Below, piece after piece: positions 1-56,780 of a stretch of 64,000 nt of DNA (positions within the stretch are counted from its first letter, which is position 1; each line of letters opens with the position of its first letter). The stretch is from Antedon mediterranea (taxonomy: Eukaryota; Animalia; Echinodermata): the NCBI RefSeq assembly GCF_964355755.1, contig NC_092673.1:19465648-19529647 (forward strand), written 5' to 3'. A model generated the notes under the pieces. The model did not search any database and was not told where the DNA came from. It saw nothing but the letters and a program-made list of their open reading frames with translations. The translations under genes were made by a program, and so were the position numbers.

Positions 1-206
1 TGCAGAACAAGGTGATACACCAATTGAGACAAAGAAAGATGTGAGTACAGTACTGTCATTCATAATATATATATAGTAGATTTGTAGGAAGGTAGTAGTA
101 AGTTGAAATTACCAATCATAACTTTAGAAATTATGAGCAAAATAAAAAAAGACAGTCAAAATATTACTTATTGTACTTCATAGTTTTATTTTATTTTATG
201 TGTCAG

Positions 207-3200: not shown

Positions 3201-6200
3201 AACCTATTAAGAATAATCTAACCAGCTTCCATGCCATTACAGGTTGCAGCACGTCATTATTTGCTGGTTATGGGAAGAGGTCATACTGGAAATCATTTGT
3301 AACGCATCCACTCCTTGTAAATGGAATTGATTAAGATTAAGACTTTCCACGTACAGTGTACACTAAAGTTTAATATTGCCAAATATATGGTACTCTTGAG
3401 CAGAACTGTATAATAACAGACTACTCTTTGGTGCTACCTCCATCTAGACTCAGTGACTATATACCATTAACACTAGTGATATATAGTTTATCTGATTATT
3501 TTGAAACTACTGATCATGCATATAATACAAGAATTAATCATTATTTTAATTTAGCCATTCCTCCTTGTCGTATTAATTGTGGACAATTTAGAATTTCTTT
3601 TTCTGGTGCTGTTATTTGGAATGATTTACCTTTAGAATTACAAACAATTACATCTAGATTTGCTTTCTCTAAACAACTTAAAGAATTACTTTTATCTAAG
3701 TATATAAAAGAATAATCTATAATTTACAATGTTTTTATATATTGTTAATTCATCAGATATTATCTATTGAACTGATATGGTTTTGTTTATTACAGTATAG
3801 TACATACAGCACTTATGTTATGTTATTTTATTTATTTATTATTCAACATTTTTTGTTTTGTTTTTGAAGTTATCAAATTTTTATTTTCTTTTAAGTTCTG
3901 TTATTTATTTGTTAATTTTGTAGCTTAAGTTAGTTAAGATAAAAGGTACCAAGCTTGATTAGCTTCGGCTATACCTTGGCTACCTTTTGTATTAAATTGT
4001 TTTTTGTTTGATACAATAAAGAAGATTATTATTATATTTCCCTTAAATATTAAGTATTTCACTTCACTCAATAAATATTTAAGTACCTGTATTTCTACTT
4101 CGGGAAACACTTAAAATTAAAAAAACTCGCCTATGGTGAATACAGACATCATAGAACCTGAACATACGAGCCAACTATCAGGCAGAGCTATAAGTATGTG
4201 GCCTAAATGAATCGGGTCGTTTGGAAGCCCCTAACCCAGTTGTCAGTTTGGAACTTGTTACATGTGCATGTAAACTAAAGAGCCAGATGAAGTTGTTACA
4301 GAAAGCATGCATATGTGGTTGTGATTCAATCGTTTGCCGTTACCCAGATGGCCAGTAGGCATTATATATCAGTGCTTGAAGAAATACCCACATCAGAGCG
4401 TTACCTCCTTCCATCCCAGAAAAATTTCGAATATTGGCATGTGCCCATGCCGCCCATTACTCCCAACCCACAAACCCTCTGTGACCGTTTTTAAATGAAA
4501 TTTAAGACATTCCAGTAGGCCTCCAATTTCGGTTATTTTGATACTCTAGGACTCATCCTCTCCATTCCTTGAACACCTTCCAGGAGTGACTCAAAAAGTT
4601 TAAAATCTTCCCAGTACAATTCTGGTCTTTTTGACACCACACTATAACCATCAGCCCCAGGCTATCATGAAAATTATATTTATTTCAATTATTAATACCG
4701 ATAATTAACAGGTCTGTGCTCTATTTGACCTTATGACCTTGAAAATGACCTTTAAACTTGTAAGTTGAAAAATTGATGAACTGCACCATCTACAGCAATA
4801 TGTCAATAATGATCCAATAATGGTTACATTTCTTTTAATTAGCTTATATGTTGTTGAAAACAGCTTAAACCTCTATTTTACCATATTTGACCTTATAACC
4901 TTGAAAATGACCTTTGACCTGAAATTTGAGAGCGGCATCCACCCCTATCTTTTTTGTCATCCCATAAGGGATATATTCCACATGGTTGCCTGCTATTAAC
5001 ATAAAATGCCCCCCATGATGAAAAAGCTCACATTGGCCGCCCTACTATTATATAAAACCTAAATAGATTCCTCTCATTTGATTGGACAATTGTGGGTCAC
5101 AATAATAATATAGTAAAATCTAAGTGGCCTAATTTTATGCTCGCCAAAAACGTGGTTATTTCGGATTTTACCGAATGAAGCCTAGACAGCGCGTCCTCCA
5201 TAACAACAATACTTTGCCCATGCTCCAGCGCAAGATAGATAACTGTTGCTAAGCTCCTATCTTATAACACTACGCTCCCTGTAATTCCATAGACGCCTTC
5301 TATTCGATTTAAAATCTAAATGGTTTAAATTTTTGCAGTCCGCCTCAAACTTTCTGTGGTTAACCATCTTGAGGGTTGATTCATGAAAAAGGTAATAAAT
5401 TATGTAAACAAAGTAAAATAATAGTTTCTTTTGGATCTGGACACTTTCCTATTAATTCTGTGTGTTTACATCCGTCTTTGACCGAAACATTGTACAATAT
5501 TGCCTTGACAATGACTTATTCTGCTTCATATTTGTCCTCCTGATTGGTGTCCATGGGATTACGAATATCTCGCACAATCATCTATCTTGCGCGCTATACA
5601 ATCTTTGCTAGAACTACGCTTGACCTCCCATAGACAACAAGCACTGGAGTTAAATGATAATGCAAACCCTCAAAAACACCAAAAAACAAATCAAATATGT
5701 GGTCAGTAGGCTATAGTGGTAAATATCTTCTTTAGATGTTTAAAAAAAAAAAAAATTAGGTATCCTAGGCCTACGTTTCAATCTGAATCAAATGTAGGCT
5801 AGGCCCAGGCCTTTCATTCAATCAATCTGAATGAAATGACAAGAATCTACTTACTGTAGATGTTATATAAAAATAATTATTTTATATTCGTGCTATGGTA
5901 TAATTAATCTCATTCAGTAAATAAATAAGGTCTCACTTGCTTGCTTTTTTTTAGTTTTCATAAGATTGTGGCAAATTTTAACCAACTCTTCAAGTTTAAT
6001 TGCATATGTATACTTTTGCACATATATACACATGTTATACAAAATGTACATACAAGCAAAAATATTTGAATTTATGAAAACTGCCCAGATTAATTCTCAG
6101 CTATTAACAATGATTCTCAACATTCTAATTATAATTTAGTCTATAGTATTAACACAATTATTATTATTGCAGATCTTCATGACCTCAGAAGCACTTTACA

Positions 6201-9200
6201 TTGTAGTGTTCGATCTTAGTAAACCCCTTGATGATCTTGCTAAGGTCATTGATGCTACAAGAGTAAGTATTTCAAGAACATTTAAATTGTTGTGTTTGAA
6301 CAATTCATCTTGATGAGGACTTTATACTTTATATGCGTCACAAGGAGTTTAATTGTTAAATGTAATTTCTTTCAGCTTACATAAGTTCTGTTTTAATCAA
6401 TTTGAAATACCAATTTTGTGTAATTTTTTTGTTTACAGGAAGAGCGTGAACATCATTGGACCAATCTCCAGTTCATATTATCTTACATCCAGACGGTTTA
6501 TTCTCATAGTCGTATTGGGGGAGAAAACACAAAGAAGGGAGTTCAAGAACCAACTATCCTTATTGTGGGTACACATAAGGGTAAGCTTGGTAAGACTGAA
6601 GAAGAACAAAATGTTGAGGTTAGATACTTATTTTAGTTCTACATTATTAAAAATAGCAAGCTGTGTACATGTTGTTTTAAATAATAATGTAAACAGGCTG
6701 ACTTCTGGTGTTTTACATATTCAAGTTAGATTCAAAGAGCTTAAACTGAAATTTTTTTCTTTTCATTATTTATTATAATCAGGCAAAAAAAGTATTTGAG
6801 AAGATTGAAAATACGCTTAAAGAAAAACCATATGAAGAACATGTATATCACCAATATTTTGCCATTGAAAACAGTCGAGAAACTGCAGATAAGAGCTTCA
6901 TTAAACTCAAAAAAGTTATTGACAAGCTTATGACAGATTTAAAAAAGGATGTCCCTTTAAAGTGGATGCGTTTTCGATGTGATCTACATGATCTAAGAAA
7001 GGATGACCTGAGAAGGCAAAAACCTTTTCTTTTGCATCCTTTAAAAGAGGTAACATTTATTTGTCATCTTCTTTATTTTGTATCTACTAACTATAAGAAC
7101 ATCACCATAGCTAATATATATATTTTTTTAATTAATTGAAAATATTATTTCCCCATTCATATTACTGTTGTTAATGCACTCTGGCATATCATGCGCTATA
7201 TACACATATAAATTAGCTCCACAGTGGAATAATATACGAATAATGAATTATTTGTTTTATAACACACCTACTTTTAATAAGAGGCTACAACAAAACTAAC
7301 ACTAACAGAGAAGGTAGCACTTCAATTTTAGACATGGACTAGAACAAAGTGCACGATTCATGACACACACTACAGCCTTGTGTCACGCATAATTGCTCTT
7401 GTGACATAAATACAAATGAATAAAGTTGAAAGAAGATTCCTCCGTGTATTTACTATGCATTAACCACTTTGTCACAGATAGATTATTACATACCGCAATG
7501 AATTTTATTTTGTTACTAAGATGACATCTTTAAACATTTTTAAAAAAATATACGCTGTCAAAGTATATATTTCTTTCCAACGTTAATATACGAAGATTTT
7601 AAAGAAGAAGGAATGTTAAGTTTGTAATTCGGTCCAAGAAAATGTCATAGTGCGCGTGTAAAATGTTTTAAATGCTTAAAATAGACTAAACATACTCTAA
7701 TTTCATCGAAAATACATGTTGACAATTTTGAAAATTTTAAGCGTGCGTTTGCATGCGTTTTATGCGCTACACACATAATTGTATTGCCATAATGATGAAA
7801 TATGACCTGAAGTTTATGAGTATCAAATTTGGTTTAATTATGATTAATGCTTGTGAAGAAAATTGGGCTTTTCATGTATAATGTTACTACTAATCAGGAC
7901 GTGCGTTTTTCATCGCTCTTTATTAAAATGGTTCTTACCATAATTATAATACAAGATCTAAAGACAAAATGAGACTCAGAAAACGTAATCGTACTTCTAC
8001 TAGTTTTACTGTGTCATGTGTGGGACCTAAATTGTGGAATGACTTGAATTATGAACAACAAAATACCAAATCAATATATATATTTAAATCATTGTTTAAA
8101 GAACATTTATTATCATTTTACAAATAATTTTAAAATAATACTTGTTGCAGGATTTAGCTTTTTAGGTGATCATTTAGAATAAAATGATCACCTATTGTTA
8201 TTGTATAAAATATTTATTCTTATGATTCTTCTTTATTTCTCTCTGTACAGATTTTGTGTAACAAATATCTCAAAAAGTTGAATGTTAATGATTACCAAAA
8301 TTTCACAATGTCTTTCAAATACTTTAACTTAGTCCTAATAAGCTTTTCAGCGTGATCACTCATCCGTGACGTCATTTATACGCCATTTTGTGAAATCACA
8401 TTATCAATCATATCTCCATAATTCATTATCACATATTAACGAAATTAACAACACGTAAACTTCAGGTCAAGGGTAAAAATATTATCAAATAAAAACGCAC
8501 GCGCACGTAGGGTCCTGCACGTGAAATCGCGCGTTAAAAATTTAAAAAGCCTACCTCAACCAAGTATGTTACTCATGAGTTGGCAATATTTTCATTTTGA
8601 TGACGTCATCACGTCTTAAAATTTGAATAACAGTGGTTACGTAATTTCACCCACAACGTATATTTGAATACCTTACAGCTCTTCTGAATTAAAGTTGACC
8701 TTGATGTTTATAACTTATTATGAGAGCTGGTGAAATTTAGATATGAATTCATATAAAAATTAAGCTGATCGGATGTTGTTATCATATGGCCAGTTGAAGT
8801 TAAAAATAGTTTTTAAATTTCTTTAGTCAAAGTTATACAAATTTCAAAGAGCGCACATTGCGCTTCTACGTGTCAAATTCTCTTCTAATTCTTATATTTA
8901 TTTGCTCAATTCATTATCCTTCGAAATTATCATCTTCGAGTTTGTTTTGATAATTCCATCATACCAAAAAATTAGAACATGATGTGTGCCCCGTAATTTC
9001 ACCTATGCTACACTGTATATAGATATATACAGTATATACGGTACTGTATAATTATTGTATATGGCATATAATAGGCACAACTCAACACTATAAGCGTATA
9101 ATAGGATGGAATACATCATCATTTTCCGATCGTATGTTAACGTACGTGCATGTTTAAAAAAAAAAATTTCAGTAATTAATTAATATCAATAATTAATTAA

Positions 9201-12200
9201 TTAATGTCAATAAAATGATAAAAATGATCACCTATAATTCGTCAAAGTGACGAATTAAATTCTAGTTTTAATTATTTATGTTTTAGTTTTTAGGCTAGTT
9301 AGGGACGTAGGGGGACACAATTAATCAAGCTCCTTTGAGTTTTTATGTGTTTCCTTTTCATCTTTATTTTATGTTCTCATATATTGTTGTATATTTTCAT
9401 GATTGGTGATGAATAAAGAATATTTGAATTTGAATTTGAATTTGAAGATATGATTACAAACGTGATTTTGTTAAATCGTGCGTAGACCGTGTAATATTTT
9501 TATATTTTTGTGTCTTCATACTGTGTGTGATTAGGCTAATTTCACTACAAGCATGTGTATGCTAAATTTGGTGTAATGGTTATATAACCAGCTTTTCAAC
9601 TAACAATAGTTTCAGTTGACTAACAAATTATAACATCAACGCCAAAGCAAACGGATGAATTTGAAAAGAAATAGGTTTTTTCTGAAACTACTCATATCAA
9701 AAAACCTGTATATTAAATCCAATTATGTTCACAAATTACAAATTATAACTCTTGCCTCTTGTACAAAAAGTTTTTTGAACAAGTACTTCTCGAGAAAATG
9801 CAATTTCAGTTTACTTGTTTACTTTAAGACTGCACGCCAGCTTTTGAAAATTCTGTCCTATCTTTTAACACTAGCAGGTCTGAACAATTTTAAAAAGTGG
9901 TCCATAATTGGGAGGGTGATCCATGATAATGCATATAACATAATAAAACATGACATGCCTTAATTCCTTAGATCAAAACACTGGCTGCTAAGAATGGTAT
10001 TGCCGAAAAGGAACAATCAGTGCTACTTAACTTCTTGTATGATATTGGTGAAATTATCTACATGCCTGACAAGGAATTATTAAAAGATCAGGTGGTGTTA
10101 ATTCCCGATAGCTTGGTTAAAGTTTTAACCAGATTTGTAACTGTGGTTCCATCAAAAGTAAGTAGGCTCATATCAAATTATAAACAAGTGCTCAATATCA
10201 TTTCTTGTTCCTTTTGGAAAAAGTTTTATTTTTCAAAATAAACTGAGGTACTTATTCTTATAGGCAAGATTATTTTAAACAGTTGTAGTGGTATAGTGTA
10301 AGATTATATGTGATCCTTAAAACTTTTCATAGTGTCTATTTGAAGAAATGATGCATATTATTCTCAAAACTAACATTGTTGTTCCCAACATCCCTCTCAT
10401 TCAGTTTCTGAATATTCATCTATCACTAATGTAATAAATACAGAAACACACAATCACATTTATGGCTAATTATTGGTGTTTTCTTTTAGCCGGTCACGTT
10501 TAGAAAGGCTTATCGTCAGCTTGACAAGGGCATACTGGAGGAAGACTTATTGCGAAACTTTTTTGAAGAGTGTAAAGTAGATGTAGATGTATTAAAGAAA
10601 TTTGAGTTACTTGTAGAACTGATGATTCAATTAGGTTTCATTTGTGAGATGAAGACAACCAGCAGCCCAGATGTGGCAAGTACATCTACAGTAGGTTTTG
10701 TTTCTTTTTATTGTTTATGTAAGGGCTAACTGAAACAAGTTTACATTTTTATGCTCTGTATTATTTGTATGGTATTTGATGAAATAAATGTTTGTTGAAC
10801 TTGTAATTTCCAATGTTAGTAGTATGATTTGTCTGCGATTTTACTGAATATAGTATACACAATTTTAGCCTTCAGACATGATTTTGTTAACATTTATACT
10901 GAAAGATATTTTTAACATATATAACTGATCTTTGGTTCTTTTAAATGACATTAAACAAAATTATCAATTTCAGGGTTCCATTACAAAGCGGTCATTTTTT
11001 GTGCCACTACGCCTTGCTTTCAAAACATCAAGTGAAGTAAAACAGGAGCCAGATGATTCACAATCTATCAGTATCTATTATGACTTTGAGGGATATCTGC
11101 CAGATGTACTGTTTCCATATGTCATTGTGGAATGTCTTAACAAATTTCAATTGGAAGGTTTTGAGCCAAAATTGTCATGTAATCATTGTAAACTTTACCT
11201 TGACCAATTTCATCATGTGACCGTATCTCTTGTCCAATTCACAACTAAGGAGGATAAGCAAAAGTTCTTGTTAAAGGTACATACAATCTCTAATAAATGT
11301 TCAATATATATTTGTTTTTATAATATTTATTGTCAACAGTGTCATACATCTGTTGAATAATATAAGTCAGAATTTACTGTACACATGTATAAACATAATA
11401 ACAAAAATAATTTTTTTATCCAGATGACTGTTAAAAGAACAAATTCTTTTAAACAAACAAATGATGAAAAATGTGAACCATCCTCTGAAGCATGTCAAAA
11501 GGTATTTTTTAGATATTTTTCTAGGTTTTTAAATTCTGTAGATAGTTTGGTTTTTTAAACATTCTAAAACCATTTTTGAGATGACACATAACAATTATAC
11601 TGCCCACTACTTGACTTAAAAAGGTGGTCTTATGTCTGGTTGCGTGAGAGCGCTTATGTCGACATTTCGAGGAACTGAAGGGAACCAGTGTCGTGGTTAC
11701 CATAAGACGAGCATCACGCGATTTGTAGTTGTATGAGAATCAGTATCTGCGGTAAATTACCCACTTGATTACCCATGCCACACACATGGTTTTCAGTTTC
11801 CAGGTCCATGGGCAACTGAAAGCAACTAAGCTTATGTCAACATGTTTTGTGTGCCAGTCAGTTGCTTTCAGTTGCTCGGAACGCTTAAGTCGATACAGTT
11901 GAGTTCCATGTCGACATAAGAGCACATTTTAAGTTAAATATTACAGTTAAATTTTATATTTCAATTTTAAATAAACTAGGAATAGAAATTGGATTGAAAT
12001 TGAAAATAACAAAAATGAGAATATTAATTATGATATTAATCATGATATAGTAATGATATATGATGTTAATATTAATTAAAATTAATGAAAATACTAATCT
12101 GGAAAGCACTTCCAGATGACATACTCCTTAACCAACCAAGTTTGAAGTTCATAATGAAGTCTTAAAGTTGACTAATGCCAATTTAAGGTTTTATTTATTT

Positions 12201-15200
12201 TTTTATTTTAACATATAAACTTTCACTAAAATGGATGATGAGCAATTAAATAGTTCATTAAAACCAAATAAACCAAATTATTACAGTAGTACATAAACTT
12301 TATAAACTTCAAATTATTAGAAAAAAATAAATAAATAAATGCTCGTAATAATAGTTACAATAATAGCAAAAACAATATGCATATAATTTATCTGGTATTT
12401 CTTTTTATTTTTAATGTATTGTAAATAATATATAACACAATATTCTAAGAATATGTGCTGCTATTTTAAAGAAGTTTTTATTATTGTGTGAATTAATTTA
12501 AATTTCTGCATGTTTGAAATCATAATCCAATTTATATTTTTAGGTGTTGTCAACAGTTGAGAAGACATTTAAACAATCTAAAGATGGTGGTAGAAGAGGA
12601 ATTCCATTCAAGAGATGCATTCCTTGTGATTGTAGTCTTACATCAGAAAAGAAGCATTTTCAAATTCTTCCTAATTTCCAGTACGAAAGGTTGCCATGTA
12701 ATGAAGATGACAAGATTTTAAACACAAATGTTGAACGTTACAAGCTACTATTTGGAGGTAATAGCAGTGACAAAATTCATTATTGATAATCTATACATTG
12801 TTACAACATGCTGCTATTAGCTGTGATATCTTCATTCCTCTTAGTAGTAGTAGTACTATCAGAATCATTATTGATAATCTATACATTGTTACAACATGCT
12901 GTTATTAGCTGTGATATCTTCATTCCTCTTACCAGTAGTAGTACTATCAGAATCATTATTGATAATCTATACATTGTTACAACATGCTGCTATTAGCTGT
13001 GATATCTTCATTCCTCTTACCAGTAGTAGTACTATCAGAATCATTATTGATAATCTATACATTGTTACAACATGCTGCTATTAGCTGTGATATCTTCATT
13101 CCTCTTACCAGTAGTAGTACTATCAGAATCATTATTGATAATCTATACATTGTTACAACATGCTGCTATTAGCTGTGATATCTTCATTCCTCTTACCAGT
13201 AGTAGTACTATCAGAATCATTATTGATAATCTATACATTGTTACAACACGCTGCTATTAGCTGTGATATCTTTATTCCTCTTATCAGTAGTAGTACTATC
13301 AGAATCATTATTGATAATCTATACTTTGTTATAACATGCTGCTATTAGCTGTGATATCTTCATTCCTCTTACCAGTAGTAGTACTATCAGAATCATTATT
13401 GATAATCTATACATTGTTACAACATGCTGCTATTAGCTGTGATATCTTCATTCCTCTTACCAGTAGTAGTACTATCAGAATCATTATTGATAATCTATAC
13501 ATTGTTACAACATGCTGCTATTAGCTGTGATATCTTCATTCCTCTTACCAGTAGTAGTACTATCATAATCATTATTGATAATCTATACATTGTTACAACA
13601 TGCTGCTATTAGCTGTGATAAAATCATTCCTCTTACCAGTAGTAGTACTATCAGAATCATTATTGATAATCTATACATTGTTACAACATGCTGCTATTAG
13701 CTGTGATATCTTCATTCCTCTTAGCAGTAGTAGTACTATCAGAATCATTATTGATAATCTATACATTGTTACAACATGCTGCTATTAGCTATGATATCTT
13801 CAGTCCTCTAACCAGTAGTAGTACTATTAGAATCATTATTGATAATCTATACATTGTTACAACATGCTGTTATTAGCTGTGATATCTTCATTCCTCTTAC
13901 CATAGTAGTACTATCAGAATCATTATTGATAATCTATACATTGTTACAACATGCTGCTATTAGTTGTGCAACACAAGAATATAGGCACACAAGTAATTTG
14001 ACCAATGACAAGTGAATAAGCTCAGATGAGCTGTGCATTGCATCTTGGTGTGCATCCATGAGATACTTTGCTGGACCCAATGGTGTCCACTTACAGGAGG
14101 TTCAACTAATATTTTTTATTTTATTTGCAGATGAAACAGAAAGAAAAAGAAAATATTCAGATCAAGGTAATTGATTGAAATAAGTAGATAAATTTTGCAA
14201 AATGTTGTACTTTTATGGACTCAATGATATTTAATTATAATAAAGTATTTGTCTTTGTTAATGCTGTGCTGCCCTCAATGACGATTGTTTGAATCTCTAG
14301 GATGCAACACAAGAGCGTAGGCACAACAATAGTAATTTGACCAATGACAAGTGAAGGATTGGATAAGCTCAGATGAGCTGTCGCTTGTTGTAGATTACCC
14401 GCATGGCAATTTCATCTTTGTGTCTCAAGTGATTATAGTTAAACATGGTATGCAGTGCTCCTCCCCTCCCTTAACAAAACACTCAATTGATACTATCAGC
14501 TGAATCTGTCTGTAGGCACTTTTATAAGCAGATACTTTTGTGGACCCAAGGGTGTCCACTTACAGAAGGTTCACCTAGTGTAATTTTTTTCATTTTATTT
14601 GCAGATGAAATTGGGCCAACTGGAAGAAAAAGAAGAAAACCAGACCAAGGTGATTGAAATATTATATATCAGATAAATAGATTATTTAAAAAAAAATGTA
14701 AATTGTACCTATGTTTTACTTTTATGTACTCAATGATAATTAACTAGTATTATAACATGGGTTCAAGGATGTACAGTGGCCAATCAGATGCGCTGAAATG
14801 AGTCACATGTGCGCTCTTATTTTTCACTATCATGCACTGAAGTGGAAAAAGTTCCCAGCAAAAAAGCATAACACCACTGCATGTAAATCATATAGCAGAG
14901 TATTACCGATCGTGCTAGGCATTTTCTAGGCTAGGCGGTAATTTGGTCGGCAAGCAAAGGGGTGATTGCTGCTCCCTAGGCCTTGTCGGTGATTTGGTCG
15001 CCGAGCAGAGTGGTGATAATAATTCATAGACCCATGTTGTAAAACAAATAACGCACAATTCTAAATTTGTGCGCTACTGGAGATGCAACGCACTCTCTGG
15101 TATTAACAATGTTGTGCAACATACACCATTGTAAATACCCTCAAGTTTGCCTTATCTCCTCTAACGCACAAATTTAGACTTGTGCGTTATTTGTATAATA

Positions 15201-18200
15201 AATTATTTGTCTTTGTTAATATCAATGAATGTTATTTTAGCATAAGATGGGCACCATGATTTATTCAGTGCATACATGTTCTAGAAATGGATATGTGTAT
15301 ATTGCATGTCATTGTGAGAGTCTAACAAATACGCAGAGTATTTATATTATAATATCATGGACTTATAAAGCTCTGTATGTTGTGAAACCTCTCAAAGCGC
15401 TGATCATACAGTAGAAAATTGAGGGAAAAAACTAAACCCAAACCTAAGTATGTGATATGCCTTTGCAATGTGTGACTTGGCCCGTCATCCCCGACTCGAG
15501 TGCTTCCTACCCTAGTAAAGACAATATAACTATAACAAGATATCAAATTTATATTCATGAAAGTGTCTCATAAACAAGCTTCTACTATTCTCAACTGCTA
15601 CATTTGTTGCTGAGCCGCTTTCAAAATTGTTTAATTTATCCCTCTCAACTGGTACCATTGCCAATGACTGGGTGAAGGCCAACCTGATTCCTATCCATAA
15701 ATGAAATTGGTATAGACAATTTTAAGTAGCAAATTTATGTTAGTGGCGGTTTTCATCGCTGTTGGTTTTGATCGAATAAAAAATAAAATGATGAAGGAAA
15801 TAACAGAATGTGATGATGATCTAAAAACCTTCAACAGTTTATAAGATACATTGCTGCATTTATTATAACATTTGAACATGTGATAATGTGCTGTTGTGTT
15901 GGCAATATAGAATTTGAATGGCATCCATTGAATTCATTTCATTTCATTTCATTCATTTTATTCATCAAAAAAAAAAAATTATAAAACATGTAAAGATAAA
16001 ATGCATAAAAGATGAAAAGGATCAACAACAAAAAGCTAAAAGCTTGTACAGGGTTGAAGACCTAAAATAACAACTATAAAACAGCTAATAATATAATAGG
16101 AAATATACAATATTAAAATATATATATAAAGTAACATATTATTTCATTATTGTATATTTTATTTGTTACAGATGATGTGGGGACAAGTTCAAATCAAGGT
16201 ATGTTATATTAGGCCAATGTTTCGCTAATGTGATGTGCCCACATATGGACATGATGATGTCATATCACTACCATATTTGGGTATATCACTCATATTTGGG
16301 CACATCACACTTTTTATGTCAAACAAGTTTGATAGTGTATTAGTAATGCACTAGGCTACTTTCCTAATGATCAAATCTCGATTATCCAGTGTAAAAGTGA
16401 CATGTACATAAACAAATCCTAACATACTTTAAACATTATACTTCTCATTTTTATCATTTTCAGGTAGTAGTAGTGATGAGGATGAAAGAGAAGGAACATC
16501 ACTGAGTCACCCACACCAACAAAGTGAAGGTAAGATACTAGTAGATAGAGATAGTGATATTGTGATGATAAGTCCTTAATTTTAATTGTTTAATAAACCA
16601 AAACTTTCCACATATAGCCAAGTCTAGAATGACACACACGTGACTGTCAAATTTTCCAGAATTTACAATATTAAGTATTCCAACGTTGACAGTAGCTTCA
16701 TATTTGTTTTGAACTTGACCCGAACTTGACATTATTCCACAAATATTTTTATTTTGAAATAGTAGAGTGGAGAGAGAAAATAAAACAAATTTAATACTGT
16801 TTACTGTTTTACATTTTGTTGATATTCTATACTGATGATTAAGTACAAATTTATTTTGATTTTTGAGTGGGTACAATAATGATCACTGTCAAATGAATGT
16901 CCTGTCATTTTATTTGCAGACAAGAACACAATTGCAGGATCGAAAACTTGTGACAATTTCCAAGACCTAAAAGCTGGTCTCAGTGGTTGCTTTGATGGCG
17001 AAAGATATCGTTGGCTAAGGTTCCTACTATTTGATAAGTTGGATGTCGGTGAAATTACAAATCAAGATTTCAATGGACATGACTTACTTAATGTACTTGA
17101 AGCTAAAGGTTTAATCTTATCAACCAATGTTAATTTGCTGTTGGAGATTACAAAGTTATCAGATATCAAATATGCCAAAGATCTTGTATCAAAGTATATA
17201 AGAGACAACGTTCAGTTTAGAAATACTGATAAAACCAAGTTGTCGTTTTACAGAAAGCGGCTGTTTAAAGCCCTGAAACAAGTTGACCCACGTGCATTAC
17301 GTAATGTTATATCTTTCTACAAGTTAAGAAGATATAGCTTCTCCAATGTTTGGGATGCAGTTCTCTATCTGGAGATTCAGCAATTATTAGCAGATGATCC
17401 AGACAAAATAAATCGGTTTGCAGATCGTCTCGGCACAATAGCAAGTAACATTCTACTTGGTATGCATTTCTACTTTATATTATATTAAGTTTTTTGTATT
17501 GTTATTGTTATTGAATCATTCATTTTTTTAAACAGTTTACGTAATTGTAATCTGATTAAAATAATATTTGGTTTCATTTTAATCATTAAAATTTTACATT
17601 AACTGATTATTTATAGGCAATAGTGAGAAGAAATGAGACAGCATCATCAAGTCACCAATGTGAACAAAGTGAAGGTAACTTATTCAGTTGGGAGATAAAC
17701 ATAAAAAATGAAGATCATATATGATTATAATATGATTAAGATAATAATGACATAGAAGTTGGTGATATTGAGGATATTACTCACAAATTTAGGATTTATA
17801 AAACAAAGAATATAATAATGTAGATAGGAATAAAATAATTAGAGTGAGTAGTTTTTTTGTTGTTGTTTCTAATAGCTGATTATAGATATAGAAAATCATT
17901 GAATTATAATTATTATATTATATTCAAATAACATCATGAGGTAATTTCCCGATTGATCGTAATCAAAACGGTACTGGGTTTGGTCTACTAGCGTTCCTGC
18001 TCCCAACCAGTACATCCATTCATAGAAGCCTTAATGAAGTAAGCCTACCTGGTGGTGGCTTTAGTCGATAGAAGATTGAATAAATTGTTAGAGATAGAGT
18101 ATACGATGTTATGATTCTGTGTAGATATGTGATTTGTTCTTTTTATTCAAATGATGTTATGTATTTAATAAATTTGTTATATCAATTAATTAAATTATCG

Positions 18201-19021
18201 TAGATTGCATATTATGCGATGAATATTATTTAATAAATTTTTGATATATTATTATTATTATATTAATAAAAAAGATATTTGTTAGTATAAATTAAAAAAT
18301 ATAGATATAAGGAAGAAAAGCAAAGAGATTATGGAGCGGCTGTACCAGAATATACAACACTAAGTATTGTAAAGTTAATATATTAAAAATTTAGGCGATC
18401 TTGTCAAAGGTCAAGCGCCTTCAGCCTGCCACGTTTCGATATTCAATATTGAACTTGACCGTTCTATGGTTACCACCAGGTAGGCTTACTTCATTAAAGC
18501 TTCTATGAATGGATGTACTGGTTGGGAGCAGGAACGCTAGTAGACCAAACCCAGTACCGTTTTGATTACGATCAATCGGGAAATTACCTCACGACGATCA
18601 TTATTCAAACAATGATTATGATTATTAAACAATAATTATAAAAATGCTGAATTTATTACTTGAAATTTGAAATGATTTTGTGGTTTTTCATGAATTTTTA
18701 TTCATAAATCTTAAAACAGTAATTATGATAAGAATGCTCTCTGAATTTACTTCCTGAAATTGGAAATGATTTTGTGGTGTTTCATGAATTATACTGTGAT
18801 CATATTCAAATAATGATTATGATTTCAACAATAACTATGATGCTAATCTACTGAATTTATTACATTGGAAAATATTGTGGTGTTTTTATGAATTTATATT
18901 TATTATTCAAAATCTTAAAAAAACAATTACAATTTCCACAATAATCATGATAACTGTTATACTAAATTGATTGATACTGTTTTTCATTCGTATAGATCTC
19001 TCAGAAGATGAGAAGACTTAG
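207..19021 (+). CDS. Gene A (5'-partial, multi-exon): Roco-family Roc-COR GTPase with C-terminal tandem DED-like domains
   Basis: GT-AG exons with compatible phases: 207-231, 749-894 (FNIWDHGGQLIYHGIH, G3), 6173-6262 (IFMTSEALYIVVFDLS), 6439-6618 (PTILIVGTHKG, G4), 6783-7049 (YFAIEN..VPLKWMRF), 9972-10157 (LNFLYDIGEIIY, COR), 10490-10690, 10974-11276 (FFVPLRL..YYDFEGYLPDVLF), 11424-11501, 12544-12757, 14131-14166, 14605-14649, 16172-16198, 16464-16529, 16920-17459 (DED-DED), 17624-17674, 18996-19021 (TAG; AATAAA near 19046). A further upstream exon probably ends at 40. The last two exons are less certain. Confidence 0.85.
1900..2345 (+). mobile_element. CR1-group LINE 3' fragment (degenerate RT C-terminus)
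   Basis: Remnant translation LKFLGLTTLYDRQIHGDLIE, TRGH, FNSLP, FKNRLD. Confidence 0.6.
3480..4035 (+). mobile_element. L2/CR1-group LINE 3' tail
   Basis: ORF 3428-3715 ends HAYNTR..FSGAVIWNDLP..FSKQLK, followed by a T-rich UTR, AATAAA and ATT repeats. Confidence 0.6.
7900..8130 (+). mobile_element. LINE 3' fragment
   Basis: HNYNTRS..GPKLWNDL..FKSLFK remnant. Confidence 0.5.
8161..9266 (+). mobile_element. Non-autonomous Helitron/Helentron (HINE)-like element
   Basis: 5' TAGGTGATCATTT..AAATGATCACCTA inverted pair in a T-run, 3' AAATGATCACCTA, hairpin TTCGTCAAAGTGACGAA, terminal CTAG-T. Confidence 0.6.
11614..11934. mobile_element. Small MITE-like insertion
   Basis: Imperfect terminal inverted repeats ACTTAAAAAGGTGGTCTTATGTC / GACATAAGAGCACATTTTAAGT; more GC-rich than the flanks; absent from the paralogous gene B intron. 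Confidence 0.45.
12778..13966. repeat. 88-bp minisatellite, about 13.5 copies, intronic
   Basis: Unit CATTATTGATAATCTATACATTGTTACAACATGCTGCTATTAGCTGTG..AGAAT; the ORF track repeats every 88 nt. Confidence 0.95.
16920..17459 (+). CDS. Gene A exon encoding two tandem DED-like (death-fold) domains
   Basis: 540-nt phase 1-1 exon; DLLNVLEAKGLILSTNVNLLLEI and SFYRKRLFKALKQV..VWDAVLYLE resemble DED helix patterns. Confidence 0.7.
17937..18591. mobile_element. MITE with about 120-bp near-perfect terminal inverted repeats
   Basis: 17937-18055 is the reverse complement of 18473-18591 (TGAGGTAATTTCCCGATTGATCG..); AT-rich non-coding interior; no clear TSD. Confidence 0.8.
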
Positions 19022-19454
19022 TCACAGACTTAGCACAATGATGCAATAAACATGGATATTCTATTCATACAAATGTTAGACGGCGTTAAACTGTTAAAAA
19101 CTGGTACCAGTGCAATCTACCTGTGAACTCTTTTACCTGCAAATTGAGTAGTGATAGTGAGATGTAATGTTAGCGTGTCATACCTCAATATACAATAGCG
19201 TAGGTACCTTGGTATCCCAGAATTAAAACACACTAGTTATTGTCTGTGGTGTTTTCTTTCCAAAAAAAATTGCTGTCCCCTTATAATAGGATTAAATCAA
19301 CCATTTGGCACTCTCAAACGTGTCCCTGTCCCTTTAATAGGGTTACATCAACCATTTGGCATTCTCAAACGTGTCCCTGTCCCTTTAAAAGGGGTGTCCC
19401 CTGATTAGGAGTTGGCTGTAGTGTTAAAACATATATTTCCCCTCGTTTTATGAG

Positions 19455-19860
19455 AAAGTGTCCCCTGAATGGGGGTGTACTAAAGAAGGGGTTTACTCCA
19501 GTAGTAAAGAGGAGGGGTGTGTCCCCTGAATAGGGATGTGTCCCCTGAATAGGGGTGTCCTAAAGAAGGGGTTTACTCCAGTAGTAAAGAGGAGGGATGT
19601 GTCCCCTGAATAGGGGTGTCCTAAAGAAGGGGTTTACTCCAGTAGTAAAGAGGAGGGGTGTGTCCCCTGAATAAAGGTGTCCTAAAGAAGGGGTTTACTC
19701 CAGTAGTAAAGAGGAGGGGTGTGTCCCCTGAATAAAGGTGTCTTAAAGAAGGGGTTTACTCCAGTAGTAAAGAGGAGGGGTGTGTCCCCTGAATAGGGGT
19801 GTGTCCCCTGAATGGGTGTGTCCTAAAGAAGGGGTTTACTCCAGTAGTAAAGAGGAGGCG
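19455..19860. repeat. GC-rich minisatellite of about 60 bp, about 6 copies
   Basis: Unit GTGTCCCCTGAATAGGGGTGTCCTAAAGAAGGGGTTTACTCCAGTAGTAAAGAGGAGG, some units with an extra 18-bp subrepeat. Confidence 0.9.
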
Positions 19861-21609
19861 TTCTACTGTTGAAAGATTTATTATAAGACTTCAGCGTACT
19901 AAACGGTACATGAATGTTAGCAACAAAAAAAGATGACAAAACAAAATAACAATACTGGAATATTTACAAAAAATAACAGTAGGCCTACAAATATTTATTA
20001 TAAGATTTCAGTGTACTAAATAGTACATGAATGTTAGTAACAACAGAAAGATGACAAAACAAAATAACGATACTGGAATATTACAAAAAATAACAGTAGG
20101 CCTACAAAACTCAAAAAATCATGCTACCCAAAAATATACATGGATGGGTATAAAACATTGCTACTGTTCCTGCAGGCATTACCTATATTTAGAGATAAGA
20201 CCATTTTAACTGTTTTTATATTTTGTTGTGCATTTATATTAAAATCTCTATGTTGAGATTACAGGCAAAAATCAAACGACAAACATACTTTTTTTTTTAA
20301 ATAAGTAATTGGTTTAAGTAAGAAGAATATGTGCTACCCTCAATGCCATAAACGAAGAATGGATTAATAAATGAATTGTAGATTATAATTAGCATGTCTT
20401 GAGGAACAAAATATCTCAACTGATAAACTGATAAAATACTTTTATTGCAACTTTTGGGTTGAATTAAACAAAAATATATACTTATACTTAAATGAAAATA
20501 TATCCTATCCATCAACAATAACAATCAAAATACACAAACCATCGAAGAACAGACAAAACAGAAGACAGGGGGAGAAACGACTGTGCAGGGATATTTATGC
20601 CTACCACTTGTGAATAATATGCATATTTTTTTTATTACATTTTGTAATAAACTATGAATATTATTTTTCCATGAAAGAAATTGATCAAACAAGCCTATCT
20701 ACTTCATTTATTACATTCTCTCCAATATACCCCGATACAATTTTGTTTAAAATCTTTCTTCTGTTTTGAAAAATAATCCAAAGTTTATTAAAAACAAAAA
20801 TTTTCTCCTGAAGGAATTCAACCTTGCTAGTACAGTACAGTAAATGAACTGAGATTAAATATTAAAAATAAAGAGGCAAAATACCCTGGAACTGAAAGTA
20901 GTTGGAATGTCTTCCAATTTTTTTTTAACTTGTATACTTTGTTAATTTATTATAAAAACAAAATGGGACAAAAACATATGCAAATGAGACCAGGTAAAAG
21001 GAAGTAAATAATTAAATCCTTGCGCCCTCTAATCCTTCCCCTTACCATACTAGACATAGACACAACTTTGTTGAATCCCACTGTGCTACTAAAAACGGCA
21101 CTTTTCTAGCCCTGTTCCATAGTTGATCCGATTATTAAATGTTTGATGAATGAATTGTTTATAGTGTTAAATTTTTTTGTACTAAATTATATATTTTTAT
21201 ATGAATGAATTTTATAATGTCAATTTGGTAAATGAAATGTTTTATATTTTGATGTTTTTTCACTTTGAATTAAATTTTGTAAATTAAACTCAATTCAGTA
21301 TTTATGCTGTTATGTTTTAATGTTATTCATATTTGTTAATAAATATTAATGAATTAAAAAAAAGGGGGTGGATTTTAACATCGAGGAGATCATTATATCA
21401 AAATGTACGTGCTAGCTATTGTTAAAAATGTATTGTATATTATAGGAATAATATCCAATCCACCAATCCAGAGAATAATAAAAGTTCTTCGATATTACAC
21501 TACACAGCGATAATTGTTACGCAGACAAAAATGGTGATTGCGCCCTCTATAAAAATTTAAGTTTAATCACCCCAATAAACCACTCGCATGTTTAATATCC
21601 TAGAAGAAT

Positions 21610-24622: not shown

Positions 24623-25335
24623 TAGAAGAATGTCAAACATATTAGATTAAGAAGTAAGTTTTTGTTTGTGTCATTATTATCATACCATATCATATACGGA
24701 ATTCGTTATACTATATTGTTTTAATAGCAGGTCTTTCTTCTTTTAATTTTTTGGATCTTATATTCGTATCCTAGACTAGCCTACGCCTAGTAGGCTAGGC
24801 CTAGGCCTCATTCATACTCTCTCTCTCTCTAGCTAGGCTCGGCCTAACTAGCCTGGCCTAGCCTAGGCCCTAGTAGTCTATTGGTATTGCTAGGGATTCC
24901 CATTGCTAGTAGTTTAGTAGGCCTAGCCCTACTAGCTGGGGCAGGCCCTACCTCTAGCCTTGCTCTAGCTAACAAAGGCCTAGTAGTAGAGTAGTAGGCA
25001 TGGAGGGAGTCTCCACAACTTGCTGTTAGTTAGGGAACGGACATCAACCCCGCAACCCCTGTCTCTGGGGCTATATACCCTTATCAATACACCAAGCCAT
25101 CCATCTCGTTGGTCGAATCAGCTTTTACTTTGTATATGAATGGAGAAAAAATATATTATACGTAAGCTTTTTAACCACCCAATCAGAAGTGAGTTGACGT
25201 TGTTTCTATACTTGTGTCACCACATAACAAACAGGCCTTCCTGGGGTCTCACTGATCTCATAACATGCATTCAAACACCGTGTTGTGGTCTTTCATTTAA
25301 AAGAAACACAGTGTGGTGGTCTTTTGTTTTCATGA

Positions 25336-26552
25336 CAGTGGCGTATCCAGTAGGGGGGCAGGGGGGCCTGGGCCCCCCTGATTTCGTTTCCGTCGGCACA
25401 TCATCGCGGCCGTCGGCAAACAAAGGTGCCGGGGAAAAAAATAAACTATTTATTCTGACAATAATTGAACTGTAAACATAATTCTTTTGAGTGTTTGTTT
25501 ATTTACATATCATATCATCATTGATCCCTTCAGATCAACTATTTTTTATTTTCATTACATCTAACGAAACACGTAAAAAATGTGTAGCACGTACGTACGG
25601 CCGTACGCGGTAGATTGTTTACTCAAAAGTCTTTGACCTTGTTTTTGCATGCAGTTGAGCCTCTCATGACCTGGGATTTGTATGTCTTCCTACGCTAAGA
25701 GATTATATAGTTCCACATGCCATGTGCTTTTTTGTCTAAGATATATTTATTATAAGTGCAAAAAACCCGTTTTTTTTTCTCGATATGAGGCCTTTATTAT
25801 TCAAAATTTTTAAAGAAAAAGCACATATACCATAAAAAATATCCATGTATTTCATTTTTGGAACAGAATATTCCGTGAGGCTCAACTACAAAACCACCAT
25901 TTTGTGATATGATGTCATCGTAAGCCAATCAAAGCTGAGCTTTTTCGCGATTGGCATTGCTCACGGTTGAATGATTTAGGATTCTAGCTGATTTGATTGG
26001 TGGATGCGAATCACCCGCAGCGGAATGTTTTCTCTCGCACGTGTACCATGAATCTCTCTGATCGTTACTACACAAAGTTAGAGCAATGAATTTGTCCGAA
26101 TTCCGTTAAGTAAACAACTTTATATATTTTATAAGCATTTAATAACATGTTTTATTGATATTTCCAATGGTGATATATAAAATAAATTACTAAAAAACGT
26201 AATTATATGTAATTATTTTAACCAAAAATGGCGTAGTTAATAGAATTGTCGACTGAGGCCGCAAATTGTTTTACTTCTTTCTTGGCTAAAAACGATCATT
26301 TTCGGCGATGTTTTAGACCCTATATTTCGAAAACTACAAATCAGATTTTCCTAATTCTTTCTTTATTGTAATATGAATACAACATACTAACAGATAATGT
26401 TGGTTTGGTTTTAATTTTGCATCGTTATCCCCGGATATAAGACAATATGACTATGTAATCCTTGATCAGAGACGTCGTGTATGTACACCAATTTTGTTGG
26501 CAAATTGGCAATTCCCGGCCCCCCCAACTTCAAAATCCTGGATACGCCACTG
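25336..26552. mobile_element. Non-autonomous hAT-type DNA transposon
   Basis: TIR CAGTGGCGTATCCAG / CTGGATACGCCACTG, 8-bp TSD TTTCATGA, empty paralogous site near 63414-63421. Confidence 0.88.
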
Positions 26553-26760
26553 TTTCATGATGCATCGAAACGACGAATAACTGTTGCATAGTTTGACGTA
26601 ATGCGTAAAAAACTACTGAACTTTTCTATTTAATACTGAAATTTATTTTAACAATTTGAGAACTTGCAATGCACATAGAATATGATCATGGACCTATCTA
26701 ATTTATAGGTCCATGGTATGATAAAGAAATTGGTACACTATTTAAAAAGTGTAATAAGGG

Positions 26761-27660
26761 ATCATCTCACAGTGTGTTGATTGACTTGGTACTGTAGACC
26801 ATTCACTGTGACTGCTGTGTACAATCTCACAGTGTGTTGATTGACTTGGTACTGTACACCATGCACTGTGGCTGCTGTGTACAATCTCACAGTGTGTTGA
26901 TTGACTTGGTACTGTACACCATTCACTGTGGCTGCTGTGTACAATCTCACAGTGTGTTGATTGACTTGGTACTGTACACCATGCACTGTGGCTGCTGTGT
27001 ACAATCTCACAGTGTGTTGATTGACTTGGTACTGTAGACCATTCACTGTGGCTGCTGTGTACAATCTCACAGTGTGTTGATTGACTTGGTACTGTACACC
27101 ATGCACTATGGCTGCTGTGTACAATCTCACAATGTGTTGATTGACTTGGTACTGTAGACCATGCACTGTGGCTGCTGTGTACCATCTCACAGTGTGTTGA
27201 TTGAATTGGTACTGTAGACCATTCACTGTGACTGCTGTGTACAATCTCACAGTGTGTTGATTGACTTGGTACTGTACACCATGCACTGTGGCTGCTGTGT
27301 ACAATCTCACAGTGTGTTGATTGACTTGGTACTGTACACCATGCACTGTGGCTGCTGTGTACAATCTCACAGTGTGTTGATTGACTTGGTACTGTACACC
27401 ATGCACTGTGGCTGCTGTGTACAATCTCACAGTGTGTTGATTGACTTGGTACTGTACACCATGCACTGTGGCTGCTGTGTACAATCTCACAGTGTGTTGA
27501 TTGACTTGGTACTGTACACCATGCACTGTGGCTGCTGTGTACAATCTCACAGTGTGTTGATTGACTTGGTACTGTACACCATGCACTGTTGCTGCTGTGT
27601 ACAACCTCACAGTGTGTTGATTGACTTGGTACTGTACACCATGCACTGTGGCTGCTGTGA
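26761..27660. repeat. 60-bp minisatellite, 15 copies
   Basis: Unit ACAATCTCACAGTGTGTTGATTGACTTGGTACTGTACACCATGCACTGTGGCTGCTGTGT repeats on every 60-nt line. Confidence 0.97.
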
Positions 27661-28769
27661 GTACAGTACATGCCATATCTGAATTTCCTCAACTCAGGAT
27701 GAATGCCACTATACATTTATGATACAGTTTTGTCACAATTGTGTGCATTAACTATTAATACGTTATCAGATTTGTGATTTGTGATACATTATTTGTACTG
27801 ACAAGTATCTGTCATCTATTATCAGATATCAATTGTCTGGTAAAATTGTCAACTAGATGTTGTCTTATGATTACCTCATCCTTTGGAAGGAACATAAAGT
27901 TGTGAACAACCTAAATACACATTTTATGTGTCAAGTAGGATAATTGTAGGTGCTGTACTATGGCTACTGTAAATCTGAATTCAGTTTCCAGTTACACCAT
28001 CAAAAATACTTTTTATTTTTTGTTTTATTGACATTAATTTATTGTGACTTAAAAGTTTAATTTGTTTAAAAGAGTATTAGTATTTCTAATGTACAGTATA
28101 CTACAAAGGATTGTGTTGTTGTTTTGTGTGTTAGATTGTGCACATAAGACATGTGTATTGTTACAGCACAAAATAAAACTGATAGGAAATTTAATTTCAT
28201 TATGCAATTATTTTATCTTAATTAGTCAGTTTAACATTTTTTCATGTCTTAGACTTAGAGCACTCTTCATACTAATGGAGATTTGGTAACATGCATTGAC
28301 AGTTGACAAACATTTTGTGGTTTTAATAAATTAAATAATTTATTATAATATAGGGTAAGTTACACAGAAAAAGTCATGTGATGATGTGTGTTTGCCTAGC
28401 CCTTGTTTAAGGTGCACTTTCACATTGACCGTGTTCGTACGGCGATTGAAATACACGTTTATTTGGTTTTTACCCTTGGGGTAAAACCCATACGACGTTC
28501 GTACGAATAAACAAAGTACCGGTAAGCTGACACGAAACCAATTAAGATCGGAATTCTTAGGTCAAAAAGCGCCCTCTGTGCGTCGACCCATATCAATTGA
28601 CATGGCGTGTTGACAAATTCAACTGGATATTGCATGTCGTTTCGCGCGCGAATCGTTCAATTATTATTTTTCAATCGACAACCAGACCTATATATTTATA
28701 ATACATCGAATACAATTTACTTTTTAAATAAATAATGATCGAAAATCCTGCTAACGTATGTTGTTTGTT

Positions 28770-53634: not shown

Positions 53635-55638
53635 TCACAAAACACAGAAGATGACTAATCAATGTTTGTAAAAATATGGAATATTTTATTTATTTGTGTT
53701 TCATTTTATGCTTCATTTTTGTTCAATTCAAGAAACATTTATTGACCAAAAATATTATATCATAACAATGGTTTGCATATAATATATATAGTCGAGAGAC
53801 TACAAAGGCCCAATGGGCCTGTCGCTGTAGTCCCTCTTTACATTATACAAATAATAATAATACAACACTTAATCTTAATTAGCCATTACGTACATTATAT
53901 AAATGGAAAAAAAAAAGAATACAGTATCTTAATTAATTAGGTTAAAAATTGGTATATATATATATATTATGCCAGTATTGTGTTTAATAATAAATAATTT
54001 AAATAAATGGAAACATCTAGTTAGTTTATTTTGTTGTTACTATTACAGTCAACTCTCCCAATACTAATATTATTTTACTATGAATTAAAGTATTTATTAA
54101 CAAATGAATTTATGAATAATTTACATAAGGCTCAGAAGAAATGGACGAATAACCTAAAAGATAAATTATTAAAACTATCTAAAGACTTGATGTTAATAAT
54201 TTAATTATTTTATCGATTCCTTTTTCTTTCTTACCTTATCATAATGGACACAAATCCTGCATATCAACGTAAAATCTGTTTATAAGCATCACATACAGTT
54301 TAAGATTTTTAAGATGACAATAGTTCAAATACATGTAGCATGTCAATATAATCTGTATGTATTGGTATTTGTTTAACATATATATCTTTCTATATTTGCA
54401 TTATTTTATATCGTATACATGTCAATTTAATCTATAGGTATGTGTATTTGTTCAATATATATACTTCTATACTACTATAATATGTTATACCGTAAATACA
54501 AATTGTAAGTAGTAGTTGTACTAAGATGACATCGGGTATGAAGCGTCTCACATACACACAGAGCCAAAATTGCATCTTGGACTTGCACCGTGTATGGACT
54601 CTAACCTTACGGTTTCCATTAAATATACCATTTCATGCTATCATTCTAAATAACTAACTTTCAACCTACTGCATTCCTCTTTTTTTCATACCATCCATCT
54701 TATCTTGGTGAAAAGGGAGGATACTACATTTTCCTCCCCTGAGTTTATAGCCTCTCTACTCGAACACAAACTCGAACACAAATAAGATCACAAATAAGAT
54801 AGTTTAACAAGACAATTTTAATCATGTATTTTACCGCCATTTTTCATTTCTACATTTTAATTAACATCGTATCTAAAATTTTAAATGAGAAAATATATGG
54901 TTAATATAATGAATTCTGGCATCTTATTATGTAAATATACCGGTATTTTAACTACTCTAAACACTTACTTTTAATTGTCACAAATGTACTTATATGTATA
55001 TAATATATTCATCAATGAGAATTTAAATAAACGTGAGAAGAACTCACACAAGACAAAAAAAAACTCTCCCAATACTGGACACCTTTGGGCTGGCATAATA
55101 TTTCTAGTTTTCTGGAAAGTCTGGTATTCAGAATGTGTTTCTAATGGTAAATAAATATGGGACCTTTTGGAACTCAAGAAGTGTCTGTTTTTAGGAAAGA
55201 GTTTCTGGTTTTTGTGGCCAGTATTGGGGGAGTTTTTTGTTATATTAGTTCTAATTTAATTCAAATTATGCATCTTTACACATGTGGGTTTGTTGCTGTC
55301 AATTATAATTTGTTAAATTTGAATGGGCAATAGGGATGTCCAAAAAAAAATGTGAAAATTGATGTTTTCAAAATTATATTATCATCTATAATTATGAACA
55401 AGTAATTGAGAGAAGCAATCCAATTTTATTATTTTTGAGTGCATATAAAAAAAACTAAAGTAGAATGTTCAAATTTTAACAAAATGAAATTAAAACAATC
55501 TATTGTCAAAATTGTTGAGGTCTGACAATGGTGATGATGAGAATGGTGCTGAAAATGTTGATGATAATGATTGTTAATATAATGAATGGTGCTAAATGTG
55601 TTTGACACAATTTATGTCAAACGCAGAGCAGGACCAAT

Positions 55639-56571: not shown

Positions 56572-56780
56572 CATTCCAAAACATATCACCTGTAAATGCT
56601 AATTCTACAAGTAAATGTGCTTATAAGCAGCGTTGTAATTGATTCTTCTCATTATAGTCTCCTGATGAGTGAGTTGCACGACTCACGAAACAAGCCTGTA
56701 GAGACCAAACTGTAGTTTTTACTTCTTTTCCAGACTTAACGTATATATTTATTATATATATATATATTCTTTCCTTAGCA
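55660..56780 (+). mobile_element. 5'-truncated Penelope-like retroelement
   Basis: ORF 55639-56571 with RT C-terminus (YIHQQSNHPP, WYNPPFS), CNC..CPL..C, VIYQATV..TYIRLTE..FKTRYRNH, CNLCLKEK; 3' UTR with hammerhead; (TA)n at both ends. Confidence 0.9.
56657..56705 (+). ncRNA. Type I hammerhead ribozyme (Penelope-associated)
   Basis: GTCTC-CTGATGA-GTGAGT tgcacg ACTCAC-GAAA-CA agcc TG-TA-GAGAC: core boxes with stems I and II paired and a minimal stem III. Confidence 0.85.

Follow-up and report, generated by a model that had tools for sequence, protein, structure and literature searches.

Variable death-effector tails behind a Roc-COR core in tandem ROCO genes of a feather star, probably recombined exon by exon

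Exon shuffling in the LRR-ROCO genes of brown algae was reportedly a subject of Zambounis et al. in 2012. Among the described systems that come closest to the genes presented here, the bacterial conflict systems built on AP-GTPase (Roc)-COR proteins carry variable C-terminal effectors (Kaur et al., 2021; PMC8195603), and exon shuffling has been documented in brown algal LRR-ROCO genes (Teng et al., 2024; PMC11378527). In the animals, death-fold domains have been shuffled in invertebrate NLRs and RLRs (Zhang et al., 2010, PMC2858798; Yao et al., 2022, PMC8998645), and shuffling of 1-1 phase exons, with a 1-1 bias of the shuffled domain exons, has been reported in lancelets (Huang et al., 2014; PMC4284660). 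Our comparisons with these systems refer to the sections of the papers that were drawn on.

We analyzed a window of 64,000 nucleotides from contig NC_092673.1 of the feather star Antedon mediterranea, which consists of intron-rich animal DNA with a GC content of about 30%. A comparison of the window with itself identified two colinear genes on the + strand, here called A and B, which are tandem Roc-COR (ROCO) genes located about 36 kb apart. Their exon models were built from coordinates and the AG/GT borders were checked; splicing is predicted. Gene A is represented by 11 predicted core exons (6..12757, + strand), with the P-loop upstream of the window, and its model is open over 838 aa, the 5' part being outside the window; from 9972 onward its core exons match the annotated protein P0028. 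Gene B is present as a whole (32907-53634, + strand), is open over 1130 aa and corresponds letter-for-letter to P0013, an annotated Antedon mediterranea protein. Its core comprises 13 exons (34990..48613, + strand), in which Roc (E 1e-14) is directly followed by COR-A (E 1e-10), both above the Pfam cut-off, as is a DED in the same protein, and the exons of A are colinear with those of B. No LRR or other sensor domain was found in B in the Pfam search.

The short introns of the two cores align in part (68-78%), and DNA identity over the nine core exons common to A and B is 72-83%. A preliminary description of this DNA had spoken of a constant GTPase chassis; the Roc-COR cores are indeed colinear, with constancy to be understood as a protein identity of 50-77% over the nine exons. 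The exons encoding COR have the phase 0-0; the final exon of the core, at 12544-12757 in A and 48400-48613 in B (both + strand), ends in phase 1 with a GT donor in both genes. The P-loop, which is intact, and the DxxG motif are present in B. The G4 position of Roc is occupied by Gly in A and B, where Asp is frequent; Gly or Ala was also observed in 26 of 32 alignments with at least 50% identity, and Asp in 38 of 86 more distant alignments. Since A, B and many of their relatives have no Asp at this position, the core may, judging by these motifs, not be a normal GTPase.

Three homolog searches, which reach close relatives only, retrieved 12, 12 and 35 proteins, which came exclusively from Antedon and Anneissia. 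Of the 35 core matches, 24 are probably located on one chromosome, and a second A-like core was not found among the 35 (the next best match being 76%). The paralogs are annotation models that were compared as proteins; 33 cores were kept after isoforms and duplicates had been dropped (P0013, P0026, P0028, P0050, P0051), and P0021-P0024, P0054 and P0055 were also dropped from the DED tree. All 33 cores stop at the same position, and what follows differs widely. By eye, 11 were labeled as carrying A-type DED pairs and 7 as carrying other DED pairs from Antedon; 4 have death domains, 4 have a membrane end and no other tail domain, 4 have nothing after the core, 2 bear pairs from Anneissia and 1 is a probably fused mixed model. 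Two DED-pair types in tandem are found in P0006 and P0011, and P0005 shows the same order of DED pair, linker and membrane end as B, while more distant relatives bear death, DED, HEPN, ZU5 and other domains. The 20 label changes on the core tree were left out of the evidence, the labels being numerous and assigned by eye.

The phase-1 donor at 12757 in gene A scores well (96th percentile), and the acceptor that comes next, 1.4 kb downstream, is strong and in phase. The tail that begins there is located on the + strand and contains four micro-exons of phase 1-1. The first is basic, with a length of 36 nt (14131..14166) and a peptide that is identical in P0001 and related in P0002, P0007 and P0038; the second, of 45 nt (14605..14649), is also basic and is a local duplicate of the region of the first (77%). 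These are followed by a micro-exon of 27 nt (16172..16198), an acidic linker exon of 66 nt (16464..16529) and a tandem-DED exon of 540 nt (16920..17459, phase 1-1). The next linker exon (17617..17674) is 58 nt long and frameshifted relative to the paralogs when spliced at the strong acceptor 17617 (score 7.7), and then runs into a stop at 17634-17636, as in annotated paralogs; it is a symmetric 1-1 exon of 51 nt only from the weak acceptor 17624 (score -2.4). This stop is probably the end of A. An alternative terminal coding exon with a weak acceptor (18996..19021) encodes the same peptide that ends P0004 and P0025. By eye, the basic micro-exons resemble nuclear signals.

The tail of gene B, likewise on the + strand, starts with a micro-exon of 39 nt (49006..49044), for which there was no convincing match in 30 family tails (one match, within a DED). 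It continues with a tandem-DED exon of 543 nt (50508..51050), which has a weakly scoring acceptor that is nevertheless used by the annotated model, and a linker exon of 57 nt (52981..53037) that is weakly similar to the post-DED linker of the ROCO protein P0005; all three are phase 1-1. The terminal exon (53465..53634) likely encodes two membrane helices, as suggested by its hydropathy. The linker resembles 1 of 30 ROCO tails and the last exon the ends of 4 of 30 (p <0.01). The preliminary description had contrasted an A tail of basic micro-exons, one DED pair and a soluble end with a B tail of a different DED-pair type and a membrane anchor. This picture is upheld, with two of the four A micro-exons being basic, a top 19-residue hydropathy of 1.2 in the A tail, which has no hydrophobic stretch, and values of up to 3.2 in the last exon of B. 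That all internal exons of the two tails are phase 1-1 is predicted for eight of nine, the exception being the A linker as spliced from its strong acceptor. Gene B also has an N-terminal tandem-DED-like exon of 501 nt (33005..33505, + strand), absent from the earlier account; all three DED-pair exons, those of the A tail, the B tail and the B head, are predicted to be phase 1-1.

An AlphaFold model of the A DED exon, based on an 18-row alignment, has a pLDDT of 89.6 and best matches the tandem DEDs of caspase-8 and cFLIP (Foldseek TM 0.72, E 9e-4). According to this model the exon folds as a caspase-8-like tandem DED; its Pfam DED match is weak (E 0.0026), and a sequence search against solved structures gave no match for it. 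For the B tail exon, the first half matches the Pfam DED at E 2e-7, which is below the curated cut-off, the single-sequence model is poor (pLDDT 48.5), and the solved-structure search gave five viperin-like matches with E >0.3 that were taken as chance. Its assignment as a putative tandem DED rests on the sub-cut-off Pfam match and on homology to the A pair. This homology is weak, with 36 of 167 aligned residues identical (22%) and an alignment score of 69 versus a maximum of 61 in 500 shuffles. Related DED pairs occur in annotation models of ROCO, NACHT, caspase-8-like and fibrinogen-domain proteins, and among these the crinoid caspase-8-like protein P0018 bears such pairs.

The cores and the tails of the family give conflicting trees, in agreement with what the preliminary description expected of shuffling. 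Incongruence was tested with 12 genes whose pairs are of the A type or related to it; P0001 was excluded because it may share A's own exons. Under LG+G4 without a mixture model, where false AU rejections are more frequent according to the tool, and with groups taken from the tree of the other data set and named after the larger trees had been seen, the core data rejected the grouping of A with P0002 (AU p 0.004) and of A with P0002 and P0003 (AU p 2e-56), and the DED data rejected two core clades (AU p 0.008 and 0.001). The pairwise comparisons point in the same direction. A and P0002 are 64% identical in the core and 96% in the DED pair, whereas P0007 and P0038 are 99% identical over 741 core residues and 24% in their DED pairs; the values for core and DED pair are 99% and 71% for P0007 and P0008, and 95% and 77% for P0004 and P0005. 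For A and P0002, the protein identity switches at the phase-1 intron: 44/67, 73/101, 12/26 and, just before the intron, 40/71 residues are identical in core exons, and 9/12, directly after it, 12/15, 9/9, 18/22 and 174/180 in the exons of the tail.

The DED pair in the tail of B has relatives outside the ROCO family. It belongs to a clade (100/99) with P0068 (76% identity) and the pairs of the NACHT proteins P0014 and P0016 and of P0017, and its grouping with other ROCO-tail pairs was rejected (AU p 0.0003). It is 63-76% similar to non-ROCO proteins versus 22% to the A pair, and by eye the repeats in P0014 start and stop at the same residues as the B exon. Since the B DED exon groups with NLRs while the linker and membrane exons resemble those of ROCO tails, the unit of exchange appears to be the single phase-1 exon and not one cassette. 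A transfer in the direction from NLR to ROCO is likely for the B DED exon, on the basis of one tree. In the tree, the head pair of B stands together with those of an NLR, a protein with a fibrinogen domain and what is probably a fragment of an NLR (100/97). That the tail pair of B could be a copy of this head pair was also considered and is ruled out (31% identity between the two pairs, AU p 3e-9).

The DNA itself supports the placement of the border at the end of the last core exon, as originally described, with the similarity of A and B extending through this exon and ending 4 nt into the intron. A minisatellite with an 88-bp unit and 13.6 copies (12777..13968) begins 20 nt past the phase-1 donor of A, and in a sensitive comparison no DNA homology above background was detected between the A and B tails, the best match (48 bits) being located in sequence of about 19% GC and its score equaled by 1 of 60 local shuffles. 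Because the minisatellite lies directly behind the donor and the tails have no DNA homology, the 5' breakpoint cannot be placed. An 11-base match around the stop codons of A and B is marginal, its score being equaled in 18 of 500 shuffles, and was not used.

On the 3' side, the alignment had been thought to restart at 20860, whereas in our comparison A and B become similar again from about 20608-20836, in non-coding DNA that has two copies near B. This proximal flank (20608..21584) corresponds to 60699-61672, and its first part has a second B copy at 58564-58874, in a 2.3-kb tandem duplication. It is outside both coding sequences, at least 1.6 kb past the last possible stop of A and at least 4.9 kb past the stop of B. 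Distal non-coding segments (25044..27947) are shared with 63069-63966 at 92-93% identity. Given this value, as compared to 72-83% for the core DNA, we consider the 3' flank to be a younger segment of the array and not the matching arm of a single exchange. The concept of one swappable cassette between conserved flanks is therefore too simple: the exons mix individually, and the 3' flank is non-coding and, by its identity, younger than the core.

It has been documented that errors in gene prediction can create false domain shuffling and inflate its counts (PMC4967905), and the public annotation deserves attention in this respect. We predict that the A core is spliced to the tail at 14131-17674, but the annotation splits A. 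In P0028 the A core runs past the 12757 donor into the intron, and in P0001 another core, which is not in the window, precedes a tail that is identical to that of A over 238 residues. Either the tail was copied very recently and P0001 is a gene of its own, or one of the models is mis-joined, or two cores share one tail, and the split implies that there may be mis-joined models in this family. The tail could accordingly belong to an upstream P0001 core, with A being a tail-less paralog inside its intron or both cores sharing the tail, and with some of the variety due to model error. This is exactly the split shown by the annotation; furthermore, P0001 and P0002 are alike both in the core (91%) and in the tail (95%), as expected of an intact gene pair, 4 of the 33 models have no real tail, and the adjacent accession numbers of P0001 and B provide a hint, if only that. 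The good donor at 12757 and its strong in-phase acceptor are difficult to reconcile with this arrangement, and a foreign core between a core and its tail would itself require a rearrangement at this intron. Moreover, B, the independent model of which agrees with the annotation, has a DED exon of the NLR clade regardless of A. We consider this explanation unlikely. A related and slightly more doubtful possibility is a combinatorial splicing locus, in which several cores share one set of tails, the A core and the P0001 core would be alternatively joined to the same tail, and germ-line exchange would restock the DED modules from NLR genes. If true, the locus would represent an animal counterpart of the bacterial Roc-COR variable-effector systems and would rewire which death-signaling complexes a GTPase scaffold joins.

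Differential loss offers another account, according to which an ancestral long tail contained serial DED pairs, linkers and a membrane exon, different ones of which have been lost or are skipped in the paralogs, none having come from outside. Two pair types in series can make the loss of one mimic a swap, and P0006 and P0011 do have an A-type pair, a linker like the 17617 exon of A and a second pair. The frameshifted linker of A has the appearance of such a tail cut short, P0005 shares the exon order of B, and the similarity of the A and B stop regions, marginal as it is, fits as well. Loss probably accounts for some of the tail differences, including the truncated end of A. As a full explanation it seems improbable to us: the B pair differs from the second-pair type of P0006 and P0011, as seen in the AU test of its grouping, the conflicting trees within the A-type pairs are not explained by loss alone, and a tblastn search with P0001, P0002 and P0013 detected no trace of the DED exon of one gene in the tail of the other. 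More improbable still is that the two tails are colinear homologs that evolve much faster than the core. Both do consist of micro-exon, DED pair, linker and end, and their DED pairs are detectably homologous; yet fast evolution cannot give A and P0002 near-identical pairs on much less similar cores, nor can it make the B pair so much more like non-ROCO proteins than like the A pair. The 3' regions thus do not behave as colinear homologs with congruent phylogenies, the outcome that the preliminary description had held to speak against shuffling.

We therefore favor, with a probability of about 0.7, the hypothesis of a ROCO array in which tails have been recombined exon by exon among the members, the DED exon of B likely having been exchanged with an NLR-type gene. 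A and B would be members of an expanded, tandemly arranged feather-star family, built of a conserved Roc-COR core that closes at a phase-1 intron and, behind it, a variable series of exons predicted to be 1-1. Such exons could be moved by unequal crossover or conversion within the array's introns, and the reading frame would be preserved by their phase symmetry.

Tandem DEDs are familiar from the biology of caspase-8. With this in mind, and with ROCO proteins being probable dimers (PMC4104024, in the sections drawn on), it can be hypothesized that Roc-COR dimers would cluster the tandem DEDs. The clustered DEDs would then recruit partners of the matching type, such as the caspase-8-like P0018 or NLRs, and the outcome would be immune or cell-death signaling, at a location set by the membrane exon in B or by the basic micro-exons in A.

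The family extends the "constant Roc-COR, variable effector" design of the bacteria to an animal, and it suggests a connection of the crinoid ROCO proteins to signaling of the NLR and caspase-8 type. Exon shuffling of death folds is a known phenomenon; near-identical paralogs that differ at one defined intron are rarer, as is a moved exon that can be traced to another receptor family, and both are directly testable. The family provides a natural set of variants for learning how a Roc-COR scaffold that lacks a kinase and LRRs functions, and whether the type of DED sets the choice of partner. Crinoid ROCO-DED genes did not turn up in the literature searched, which covered subscription journals thinly and main texts rather than supplements. 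The source data of Kaur et al. (PMC8195603), which lie beyond the sections drawn on, may list architectures of this kind.

As in the bacterial Roc-COR systems, in the sections of Kaur et al. (2021) drawn on, a constant Roc-COR part is followed by a C-terminal domain that differs between the paralogs within a genome. The bacterial systems are intron-free, with LRR sensors at the N-terminus and 24 or more effectors that are enzymes or adaptors. In the feather-star ROCO genes, the variable part consists of phase-1 exons that encode death-fold adaptors, linkers and a membrane end, and the front end of B is a DED pair in place of LRRs. Unlike in the bacterial and algal LRR-Roc-COR proteins, no LRR family is seen in B, and the N-terminus of A is outside the window, so that the likeness is one of working principle only. 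The feather-star genes share with the algal ROCO genes an expanded, clustered family, shuffling at the level of exons and a proposed immune role, as presented in the sections drawn on (PMC11378527, PMC4104024). The units shuffled in the algae are, in the same sections, exons of one LRR each on the N-terminal, sensor side, as compared to C-terminal DED, death, linker and membrane exons in the feather star, one type of which is shared with NLRs.

The published parts of the NLR, RLR and lancelet cases that we draw on resemble ours in the lineage-specific expansion, in death-fold domains that are gained or changed at exon boundaries with a 1-1 bias, and in sibling paralogs that are nearly identical except for one domain exon. 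What sets our case apart is the Roc-COR scaffold, the C-terminal position of the variable end and the moved unit, an entire tandem DED encoded by a single exon. The modeled fold of the A pair is like that of the tandem DEDs of caspase-8 and cFLIP over its whole length (PDB 8ym5, 5jqe, 4zbw), but the A pair is 15-20% identical to these and is attached to Roc-COR, not to a caspase. The process is thus a known one, while the scaffold, the menu of C-terminal exons and the link to the DED exons of NLRs appear to be new.

At the Roc G4 position (within 6439-6618 in A and 45439-45618 in B), where Asp is typical of the GTPase motif, all members of the Antedon clade in the homolog alignment carry either Gly or Ala. 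The nearest relatives outside this clade have Asp at the same position, and more distant ones often have Asn or Glu.

A Ty3/Gypsy-type LTR retrotransposon (35928-40708) is located within an intron of the Roc region in B, flanked by a 5-bp target duplication. Its LTRs, 178 bp each with TG...CA termini, are identical, and its gag-like and pol frames are both long and open; it is a very recent insertion. In gene A, a MITE-like element (17934-18594), consisting of 123-bp inverted repeats of 98% identity around an AT-rich core, sits between the last two possible exons. The probable stop codon of A is followed, 38 nt further on, by a strong donor site (both within 17634-17674), a distance within the usual limit of 50-55 nt for escaping nonsense-mediated decay.

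The interval between A and B harbors an 88-bp satellite of about 26 copies (22037-24292), the orientation of which appears to be reversed from near 22770, along with several further arrays of 60-91-bp units. Downstream of B, an open frame of 321 amino acids (55606-56571) gave no good match in a Pfam search; judged by eye, it may resemble the terminal, endonuclease-encoding part of a Penelope-type retroelement. A 2.3-kb head-to-tail duplication of 97.8% identity, also downstream of B (56601-61263), which may be either real or an assembly artefact, accounts for the presence of two copies of the start of the shared proximal flank in B.

Splice-like sites were identified in the shared proximal flank at 20843-20993 in A and 60918-61097 in B: each copy has a donor-like site, and the B copy also begins in an acceptor-like manner. 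The reading frame is not conserved between these segments, which may possibly represent a non-coding exon.

Related modules also occur in unusual combinations in other proteins. P0092 joins a DED pair to a membrane segment and a fibrinogen domain, whereas P0017 lacks Roc but has DED pairs of two types. In P0060, Roc-COR-DED is preceded by TAZ and KIX; P0029, a possibly fused model, contains two Roc-COR units; and in P0041 a kinase precedes Roc-COR-death.
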